Origin: Escherichia phage vB-Eco-KMB23
Sequence record: OR525702.1
Direction: 5' to 3' (one strand)
Length of the DNA stretch: 64,000 nt
Position numbers and translations under genes: made by a program
Shown here: positions 43,470-45,667 of the stretch, piece after piece
How the letters are laid out: each line of letters starts with the position of its first letter
Position numbering within the stretch: the first letter of the stretch is position 1
The notes under the pieces: generated by a model
The model's database searches: none
What the model was told of the DNA's origin: nothing
What the model saw: only the letters and a program-made list of their open reading frames with translations

Positions 43470-43537
43470 GTTATCGAGTTGGTGCCATTATATACATCAT
43501 TTTCTGAGTGTGTTTTGTGTGCTTTCAAAATGAAGAA

Positions 43538-43553
43538 AGGGGCCGAAGCCCCT
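43538..43553 (-). terminator. hairpin/terminator downstream of hoc (aggggc-ttcg-gcccct)
   Basis: Same hairpin as at 2180..2195. Confidence 0.5.
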
Positions 43554-43558
43554 TATGA

Positions 43559-44977
43559 TTATGGATAGGTATAGATGATACCAGTTTCTAAAGCAGTTTT
43601 ATGAATGATGTATCCATTACGTGATTCTTGAACATCAACTTCTGGATAGTCTTTCATCATCTTCTGAAGGGTGTAACGATGCAGGTAGTATTTACTATCT
43701 GGATCTTCAGTTTTCCAATCTTTACCTTCTTCGGTCATTTTTTGGATTTCATCCATAACCCACCAACCGCACCAGATATAAGCCGAAGTACGATGTGGAA
43801 GAGGATGAACATAAGGCAATTCACCTTCTGGTTCTGGAGCAACTTTATCAGTTACCTGAACTTGACCTTCTGCTGTGATAGTTTTGCTATCATAATCAGT
43901 AGCAGTAACAGTTGCAGTAACTTCAATAGTTTGACTTCCAATAGATGATGTATCAACAGTGTATACATTAGTTGACCCTTCTACTGGAGAAGAATCTTTC
44001 TTCCATGAATATTCGATTTGTGCTTCTTCTGGAGCATCCGTAACATTAGCAGTAAATGTAGCCGAAGCATCTTGCTGAACGTTAATAGAAGGAGGAGTCA
44101 ATGTAACCTGTGGATTCATTGTCTTCTTATTAACTGTTAATGATACTTCATTAGAAGTAACTGTTTTTGCGTCATAATCTGTTGCTGTTACTTGCGCTAC
44201 GCATTTAATTCTTTTTACTCCACTTGTAGTTGGAGTATAGCTAAATGTAGCAGAAGTCGCTTCACCAATTTGAGAATCATCTACATACCACTGATACGTA
44301 GCAGATGCCCCATCAGGTTGAGAAGCTAAGGCAGCGGTAAATTCAACGGCTGTTCCAATCACTCCAGCTGGAGGACTATCAGGAGTTACTGCCAAGGTAG
44401 TCGTCTGCGTCTTTTTATTAACAGTCAATGATACTTCATTAGAAGTAACGCTTAGTGCATCATAATCTGCCGCAGTTACTTGAGCTACACACTTGATTTT
44501 TTTAACTCCGCTTGTGTCAGGAGTGTAATTGAATGTAGCGTCAGTTGCTTCGTCTACAGGAGAACCGTCAACGTGCCATTGATACGTAGCGTTTGCACCT
44601 GATGGCTGTGAAGCTAAGGCAGCGGTAAATTGAACGGCTGTTCCGATTACTCCTTCCGGAGGACTAGCAGGAGTTACGGCTAATGTAGTTGTCTGTGTCT
44701 TATTTTGAACCGTGATAGTTGTCGTAGTTTCTGCTGTTTCAGGTTCAGATTCTGCAACTTGATTGGTTGCAACTACTTTAATAGTCTTTTGACCGGCAGG
44801 TCCTTTTAGTACATAACTAAAAGTTGCTGACGTTTCTTCCTGTGGAGCGTCGTCTACAGTCCAAGCATATGTAATAGGTCCATCTCCAGTTTGACCACTG
44901 GGTGTAGCAGTAAACTGCTGAGTCTGATCTATAACTCCAGTAGGTGTTTTAGGAGTTATATCAACTGTAAAAGCCAT
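43559..44977 (-). CDS. hoc: Hoc highly immunogenic outer capsid protein, four Ig-like domains
   Basis: 472 aa; the ORF contains two adjacent ~96-aa Ig-like repeats (TTTLAVTP...LTVNKKT) and is ~96 aa longer than the T4 Hoc length I recall (376 aa). Confidence 0.9.
   Translation of the reverse strand: MAFTVDITPKTPTGVIDQTQQFTATPSGQTGDGPITYAWTVDDAPQEETSATFSYVLKGPAGQKTIKVVATNQVAESEPETAETTTTITVQNKTQTTTLAVTPASPPEGVIGTAVQFTAALASQPSGANATYQWHVDGSPVDEATDATFNYTPDTSGVKKIKCVAQVTAADYDALSVTSNEVSLTVNKKTQTTTLAVTPDSPPAGVIGTAVEFTAALASQPDGASATYQWYVDDSQIGEATSATFSYTPTTSGVKRIKCVAQVTATDYDAKTVTSNEVSLTVNKKTMNPQVTLTPPSINVQQDASATFTANVTDAPEEAQIEYSWKKDSSPVEGSTNVYTVDTSSIGSQTIEVTATVTATDYDSKTITAEGQVQVTDKVAPEPEGELPYVHPLPHRTSAYIWCGWWVMDEIQKMTEEGKDWKTEDPDSKYYLHRYTLQKMMKDYPEVDVQESRNGYIIHKTALETGIIYTYP
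44117..44692 (-). repeat. tandem internal duplication (2 x 288 bp) encoding Ig-like domain of Hoc
   Basis: Codons 96-191 and 192-287 of hoc are ~80% identical repeats. Confidence 0.8.
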
Positions 44978-44986
44978 AAGTTATCC

Positions 44987-45667
44987 TTATTTTAATGTTA
45001 CGAAAGAAGAATTACGTGTTTCACGAATTAGAACTGATCCGTCGCGATTAATGTAATAAATTAAGCTAAATAAAGTTTGGTGTGCTGACGCATGCTCAAA
45101 ACTAGTTGGGTGAGATTTCCAATCCGGAGTTTCAGCAATCCACTGGTAAATCCACCAAGGAACAGTGCAGAATCCTGGATTTTTTCCAATCAGCTGAAGA
45201 TTCGGACTAAAGTTTTCCGGAAGAGTAAATACAGACGGCTTCTCAGATTCAATAATCTCAGCTACAGCCTGTTCGAATTTTTCTTCAACAAAAGGAGTAT
45301 CTTCAATCAAAACATCGGTATTTTCAGGAATTTTATCCGTTTCTACTACTTCAATTTTAATGTCAGATTTAACCGGAGAATCAATCAGAAGTGCTGCCTC
45401 TGGATTGACTTCTTCATCGTCATATTTTAATCCGTCTGCAGCATCAGCAGCATCAATTAAGTCTTTAATAGATAACCCATCAGTCTCTGGCATAGGTTCA
45501 CTAGCGAGCTTCTGGAGGGCTTCTTCAATATCATTAACGATATTATCAAAAGATTTATTCTTTTTGACTTTTATACCAAACTGTTCAGCATATTCAGCTA
45601 ATTTAGCTTTAGCTTCTTTATTATCATCAAGAGCCTTCAGCTCTGCAATATAATCTTTATCTATCAT
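44987..45667 (-). CDS. inh: Inh inhibitor of prohead protease
   Basis: 226 aa. Confidence 0.9.
   Translation of the reverse strand: MIDKDYIAELKALDDNKEAKAKLAEYAEQFGIKVKKNKSFDNIVNDIEEALQKLASEPMPETDGLSIKDLIDAADAADGLKYDDEEVNPEAALLIDSPVKSDIKIEVVETDKIPENTDVLIEDTPFVEEKFEQAVAEIIESEKPSVFTLPENFSPNLQLIGKNPGFCTVPWWIYQWIAETPDWKSHPTSFEHASAHQTLFSLIYYINRDGSVLIRETRNSSFVTLK

Follow-up and report, generated by a model that had tools for sequence, protein, structure and literature searches.

The head outer capsid protein Hoc of phage T4 (376 aa; PDB 5vf3, 8t1x) is dispensable for growth. One monomer is located at the centre of each gp23 hexamer, its fibre measures 18 nm, and it binds weakly to mucin glycans. 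The number of Ig domains in homologues of Hoc was reported to vary from one to ten, and 650 homologues are listed in the supplement of the same study (PMC10385173). A variant with two Ig domains has been described (PMC11853027), as well as a Hoc-like protein of Klebsiella phage PMBT63 with four Ig-like domains and a capsid-binding domain, for which an extra Ig-like domain absent from T4 Hoc and an interaction with mucin were reported (PMC13435897).

The hoc gene of the window (the whole 64,000-nt stretch of DNA analysed here) lies between inh and 24.3, as does hoc in T4, and both genes share 87.5% nucleotide identity overall. The first Ig-like domain (D1), the third Ig-like domain in T4 numbering (D3) and one cassette of 96 aa (type B) are orthologous in the two genes. 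In contrast to the window, T4 Hoc is devoid of a second cassette (type A, aa 95-190 of window Hoc), which is inserted between D1 and the T4-type D2. An architecture identical to that of the window was found in the 472-aa Hoc proteins of KMB23, Yersinia phage phiD1, Shigella phage ESh33, and Enterobacteria phages RB27, ime09 and HP3. The A-B cassette pair of the window is also present in phiD1, whereas HP3 and ECP2301 carry the pair A-C, and RB27, CAM21 and Sf21 carry other combinations of types. The D1, D3 and C-terminal frame is also shared by Hoc proteins which differ from that of the window, with its two cassettes, in their cassette number, namely those of KMB26 and UGKSEcP1 (568 aa, three cassettes), of Sfk20 (664 aa, four cassettes), and of F2 and PhiPNJ-9 (about 280 aa, no cassette; PMC11853027). 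Units 1 and 2 of KMB26 are 94% and 100% identical to units A and B of the window, respectively. Four Ig-like domains followed by a capsid-binding domain are present not only in PMBT63 but also in the Hoc protein of the Mosigvirus O157 typing phage 3 (471 aa). Unlike the window, however, these two phages belong to other genera, the Ig domains of their Hoc proteins are far more diverged (41-60% identity for Mosigvirus), and the two middle domains do not form a near-repeat.

Identification of hoc and of its internal repeat

The ORF located at 43559..44977 on the minus strand encodes 472 aa plus the stop codon according to the ORF listing of the window, and was identified as hoc, the gene coding for the head outer capsid (decoration) protein, from its matches to T4, phiD1 and KMB23. 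In a collection of 5.8 billion proteins, window Hoc was found to be 100% identical to the entry 'head outer capsid protein [Escherichia phage vB-Eco-KMB23]'. Comparison with T4 Hoc, which counts 376 aa both in the PDB entry (5vf3_Z) and in the annotation of AF158101, gave an E-value of 2e-215 with phmmer. Residues 1-124 of window Hoc aligned with residues 1-124 of T4 Hoc, and residues 201-472 with T4 residues 105-376 (542 bits). From these alignment blocks, window Hoc corresponds to T4 Hoc plus exactly one unit of 96 aa, which bears out the earlier statement on T4 Hoc as a 376-aa protein with one domain fewer. The assignment to the Hoc family is secure for all features open to a test by sequence.

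In Tandem Repeats Finder, the stretch 44121-44701 was reported as 2.0 copies with a period of 288 nt (78% matches, score 724), and a second repeat search delivered the pair 44121-44408 / 44409-44696 with 78% identity. An in-frame repeat of 288 nt with 78% identity is far beyond chance. When placed in the codon register, unit 1 (type A, aa 95-190) covers 44408..44695 and unit 2 (type B, aa 191-286) covers 44120..44407, both on the minus strand. The two units share 77.8% identity at the nucleotide and 82.3% at the amino acid level; they differ at 64 of 288 nt (22%), and the reading frame is intact. The original prediction had announced a protein of 472 aa with two adjacent repeats of about 96 aa and about 80-85% identity at 44117-44692, which is the same repeat pair in a register starting at TTTLAVTP; the description, lengths, range of identity and coordinates given there proved right.

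Domain organization and predicted structure

Window Hoc consists of four Ig-like domains and a capsid-binding domain of the T4 type, compared to three Ig domains in T4 Hoc. Ig-like domain 1 (aa 1-94; 44696..44977, minus strand) is collinear with residues 1-94 of T4 Hoc and was modelled as a beta domain with a pLDDT of about 90. Then follow the two cassettes, of which unit 1 is absent in T4, as indicated by the repeat searches and the comparison of units, and unit 2 is the positional counterpart of T4 domain 2, as indicated by unit identity, dS and tree (see below). Ig-like domain 3 in T4 numbering (aa 287-382; 43832..44119, minus strand) aligns with T4 residues 191-286, and the capsid-binding domain at the C-terminus (aa 383-472 with the stop codon; 43559..43831, minus strand) is nearly identical to residues 287-376 of T4 Hoc, in which the solved capsid-binding domain covers about residues 281-376.

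Matches to PKD and to Ig-family models (Ig_2, Ig_3, I-set) of Pfam were distributed across aa 112-373 of window Hoc, those to Ig_3 and I-set at aa 289-373 falling in Ig-like domain 3. In the AlphaFold2 model, which was built with 53 homologues, residues 1-376 were folded into four all-beta domains, for which pLDDT values were mostly above 90. The best PDB matches obtained with Foldseek were strings of four Ig domains, i.e. Sidekick Ig1-4, Dscam Ig1-4 and ICAM-5 D1-D4, with E-values of about 1e-13. For the C-terminal 90 residues, pLDDT values were below 60. Because the model of this part is poor, the C-terminal domain was assigned from its sequence identity with T4. The motif GELPYVHPLPHRTSAYIWCGWW is located in this domain at aa 385-406, and window Hoc has kept the residues matching Y293, H295, H299, R300, W309 and W310 of T4 Hoc, which contact gp23 (Fokine et al., PMC10385173). 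AlphaFold2, Foldseek, Pfam and the C-terminal identity with T4 all agree with the four Ig-like domains and the capsid-binding domain that had been proposed from the sequence at the outset. The extra Ig-like domain of window Hoc appears to be a paralogue of its neighbour domain.

If window Hoc behaves as its T4 homologue, the conserved C-terminal domain would anchor one Hoc per gp23 hexamer, and the fibre would be longer than that of T4 by about one Ig domain (roughly 4 nm). The biology of T4 Hoc also suggests that the extra Ig-like module may be weakly adhesive and antigenic or immunogenic.

Occurrence of the four-Ig form

A megablast search with window hoc against 50,697 phage records returned 658 matching records. 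The best matches were annotated as Hoc and covered the full 1419 nt in one piece: phiD1 (96.4% nucleotide identity with its Hoc-like head decoration gene), ESh33, G10400, ime09, HP3 and RB27, among others. The span of the match was surveyed in 60 evenly spaced records out of the 658. The four-Ig form, with a span of 1419-1425 nt, was present in 18 of the 60 sampled records (about 30%), while 34 records displayed a span of 1117-1161 nt, including T4, T2, RB33 and RB51. A span of about 845 nt was obtained for two records (F2, PNJ-9), and a partial one of 1140-1146 nt, starting from nt ~275 of the query, for two others with longer genes (Sfk20, KMB26). Finally, four records matched over about 209-276 nt, corresponding to the C-terminal domain only. 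At the protein level, the best 120 clusters comprised 30 of 468-472 aa, 8 of 568-570 aa and 82 of about 376 aa; the member sequences of the 30 clusters of 468-472 aa, summed within these best 120, amounted to 444. In the sister genus Mosigvirus, the Hoc protein of O157 typing phage 3 (471 aa) aligns collinearly with window Hoc over the whole length, with 59% identity and three gaps.

Novelty of the four-domain form had been implied in the original prediction. This part of it was not sustained, as close relatives display the same architecture of 472 aa, an outcome which the prediction itself had named as making the form ordinary. The four-Ig Hoc is an old and common variant, present in about a third of the relatives; it is ordinary and already known because a protein identical to it can be found in the databases, its allele is frequent and the idea of an extra domain has been published. 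With an identical protein in GenBank and a common architecture, the four-Ig allele of the window matters little by itself. The 376-aa Hoc of T4 is not representative of its genus. Users of Hoc display and those comparing the mucus adherence of therapeutic T4-like phages should check the number of cassettes (0-4), since fibre length and exposed Ig modules differ among phages which are about 98% identical.

Comparison of cassette units across phages

The hoc gene was extracted from 16 phages and cut into units of 96 aa. A common frame was revealed, in which D1 is followed by n cassettes (QTTTLAVTP...SLTVNKKT), then by D3 and finally by the C-terminal domain, in an exact register of 96 aa. No cassette was found in F2 (Hoc of 280 aa), one in T4, RB33, RB51, ADUt and PYps10T (376 aa), two in the window, phiD1, RB27, CAM-21, HP3, ECP2301 and Sf21 (472-474 aa), three in KMB26 (568 aa) and four in Sfk20 (664 aa), which gives six Ig domains in the latter. 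In the extracted loci, the longer and shorter genes are located at 301-2295 for Sfk20 (MW341595), 640-2346 for KMB26 (OR539218) and 301-1143 for F2. The ends of the cassettes are invariant in the protein (QTTT..VTP, VTS.EVSLTVNKK) and highly conserved in the DNA.

Unit 1 of the window (type A) shares 93-94% nucleotide identity with unit 1 of phiD1 and KMB26 and with the sole unit of PYps10T, and 80% with the T4 unit. For unit 2 (type B), the nucleotide identity reaches 100% with unit 2 of phiD1 and KMB26, and 90% with the T4 unit. In a bootstrapped neighbour-joining tree of 26 cassette units, two clades were separated. One contained all first-position units along with the sole units of PYps10T, ADUt and RB33 (93% bootstrap), the other all later units along with those that T4 and RB51 carry singly. 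The type found at the last position, named 'C', formed a clade with 100% bootstrap. The units group by position across phages, and not within a phage.

The dS value between cassettes A and B of the window was about 1.03, with a dN/dS of 0.12. Between the window and T4, dS was 0.35 for both D1 and D3, and 0.25 both for the C-terminal domain and for unit B against T4-D2, such that the A/B value is three to four times the divergence between the window and T4 in the rest of hoc. The positional clades together with a dS of about 1.03 indicate that the A/B duplication long predates the divergence of the compared phages. Cassettes A and B of the window appear as old paralogues, both under purifying selection.

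These data were used to weigh two other origins of the repeat. In the first, a new four-Ig Hoc would have arisen when a part of hoc was duplicated in tandem, recently and in this phage lineage only, in agreement with two adjacent in-frame copies of 288 nt and with a reference phage, T4, which has one unit fewer. The copies, however, are 78% identical with a dS of about 1.0, which is three- to fourfold the value between the window and T4 in the flanking domains; unit 2 is fully identical to that of phiD1 and KMB26 while unit 1 reaches 93-94% with theirs; the units group by position (93-100% bootstrap) and not by phage; and the same architecture is found in about 30% of the relatives. Unit identities, dS and positional clades rule out this scenario, which was given a very low probability. 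The original prediction had attributed the extra domain to an internal tandem duplication. What stands of it are the paralogous neighbour domains and a duplication lying deep in time; a new event specific to this phage does not agree with the dS of about 1.03 and the positional clades.

Tandem repeats are also prone to mis-assembly, and a collapsed or expanded repeat could falsely have doubled domain 2, an assembly duplication having been named from the beginning as a possible flaw. Against such an artefact stand the 64 differences over 288 nt, the intact frame, the dN/dS of 0.12 indicating purifying selection, and the occurrence of the same 1419-nt gene in dozens of phages that were sequenced independently, RB27, ime09, HP3 and phiD1 among them. 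The divergence of the copies and the many independent assemblies exclude this explanation, the probability of which is practically nil.

The hoc gene of the window is best explained as the common two-cassette allele of a Tequatrovirus gene with variable copy number, in which A and B are old paralogues and the turnover of cassettes is likely recombinational (probability of about 0.9). Each cassette of the window has its orthologue at the corresponding position in other phages, and only the B type is kept in T4.

Among the combinations of cassettes, A-B, A-C, A-T4-like, B-C, A-B-C, A-RB51-like-B and others were found, with a conserved order of types. Units of the A type and of the CAM21-u1 type are always first, and those of the C type always last, in arrays of two, three and four units. 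A broader scheme may tentatively be drawn, although its probability was rated as rather low: across the genus, hoc could be an ordered array of 0-4 diverged cassettes of first, middle and last types, which is reassorted by recombination among phages that are nearly identical elsewhere, reduced in the T4 allele, and kept polymorphic by selection acting on the length of the fibre, on avidity or on antigenicity. No explicit description of the positional-orthology pattern of Tequatrovirus hoc was found in the searchable literature. A genus-wide ordered array of 0-4 cassettes with T4 as a reduced allele would be mildly new, the general variability in the number of Hoc domains being already published.

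When compared with Hoc from Mosigvirus O157 typing phage 3, A and B displayed 53-54% identity with its second domain and 41-43% with the third. The closeness of both cassettes to the second domain is compatible with a duplication specific to Tequatrovirus and also with gene conversion. Variable positions of the cassettes were weakly enriched in predicted loops (Fisher p = 0.04 for A and 0.09 for B), and because of this weak enrichment no claim is made on hypervariable binding loops.

Mosaicism and copy-number change in hoc

Comparison of hoc between the window and phiD1 revealed that 39 of the 51 nucleotide differences are concentrated in nt 97-384, and that almost none is present in nt 385-1056. 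The gene looks like a patchwork resulting from recombination within the gene. The segment of nt 97-384 corresponds to 288 nt of the window (44594-44881), comprising the late part of D1 and the early part of cassette A. Over nt 1-192 of hoc, the window agrees with HP3 and ECP2301 instead of phiD1.

The cassette arrays differ among phages whose flanks are about 98% identical, with one unit in ADUt, A-C in ECP2301 and A-B in the window. Over the 20 kb around hoc, ADUt shares 97.9% identity with the window, and yet its Hoc counts 376 aa. In F2, the junction between D1 and D3 displays a cassette-type end, TITVNKKT, which identifies F2 hoc as a deletion product. The domain missing in PhiPNJ-9 Hoc was called 'Domain 3' by its authors (PMC11853027); in the F2 form, the only one for which this was checked, the missing module corresponds to the D2-type cassette according to the 96-aa register. 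With alleles differing by whole units, an exact register and conserved boundaries, hoc displays the features of an array with variable copy number.

The pattern suggests that gain, loss and reassortment of cassettes would most likely result from unequal homologous recombination at their conserved ends during mixed infection, for which the recombination-dependent replication of T4-like phages would provide the setting. The process may have started from an ordered array in the ancestor, from which units were then lost repeatedly. In the window, perfect in-register identity between A and B extends over 22-23 nt at most. Owing to this short length, the A/B pair would be a poor substrate for recombination and the allele should be fairly stable.

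The two cassettes could also have been joined by unequal crossover between co-infecting single-cassette phages, one with an A-type unit (PYps10T-like) and one with a B-type unit (T4-like), in which case A and B would be diverged alleles and no multi-unit ancestor would be needed. Indeed, both types exist singly, A in PYps10T and a B-like unit in T4, next to others; hoc is visibly mosaic, and the conserved ends of the cassettes supply sites for crossover. The strong conservation of the type order is nevertheless explained more simply by an ordered array with losses, and the F2 junction with its end TITVNKKT points to a deletion. This origin is considered less likely. It differs from the preferred reading, a two-cassette allele of a Tequatrovirus gene with variable copy number, in history only, and not in the identity of the locus.

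Several hoc genes appeared split in the records. In T2 (PV648364), the match of 1117 nt lies under three CDSs, the annotation of FriedrichMiescher (MZ501066) reads 'Hoc part 1 | part 2' over a span of 1420 nt, and G29 displays two CDSs over 1474 nt at hoc. These three look like frameshifted or interrupted hoc genes. In phage vB_EcoM_G50 (G50; extracted locus 401-1561), Hoc counts 386 aa owing to an in-frame micro-duplication of 10 aa inside its single cassette (NEKEVTSNED / NEKEVTSNEV), which shows that repeats in hoc are also unstable on a second, smaller scale. A very sharp mosaic boundary was observed between Mosigvirus O157 typing phage 3 (KP869101; extracted locus 2201-2476) and the window (43559-43834). 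This boundary lies where the string of Ig domains meets the anchor domain. The C-terminal domain shares 97.8% amino acid identity between window Hoc and Mosigvirus Hoc.

Genomic context of hoc

The 20 kb around hoc are about 98% identical to several Tequatroviruses, and the window is assigned on its sequence to Tequatrovirus (T4-like phage) DNA. The gene order is inh - hoc - 24.3 - 24.2 - rnlB, divergent from uvsW, as in T4, and the order and lengths of the ORFs agree with the annotated loci of T4, RB27, Sf21 and Sfk20. The upstream neighbour of hoc, an ORF of 226 aa at 44987..45667 (minus strand), was predicted by synteny to be inh (inhibitor of prohead protease), its length and position being those of inh in T4, RB27 and Sf21. 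Directly after the stop codon of hoc, a GC-rich hairpin with a T-rich tail behind it, resembling a terminator, is located at 43537..43554 (minus strand), and the annotations of G50 and fPS-90 also place terminators there. The T4 late promoter TATAAATA was sought on the minus strand, and none was found directly upstream, between hoc and uvsW. In the whole window, this consensus occurs 24 times compared to 9.6 expected from shuffled sequences, and none of 100 shuffles reached 24 occurrences.

A few oddities were encountered in the database records. MG010123.1 ('Staphylococcus phage SAJK-IND', 32 kb) contains a Tequatrovirus hoc which is 95.1% identical to that of the window; this record, labelled as a Staphylococcus aureus phage, is probably mislabelled or derived from a contaminated assembly. 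The taxonomy line of HP3 (NC_041919) reads Rosemountvirus, although its hoc region is syntenic with T4, which may be an oddity of annotation. The same may apply to Hoc clusters named 'endonuclease [Shigella sonnei]' and 'endonuclease [Bacillus cereus]'.
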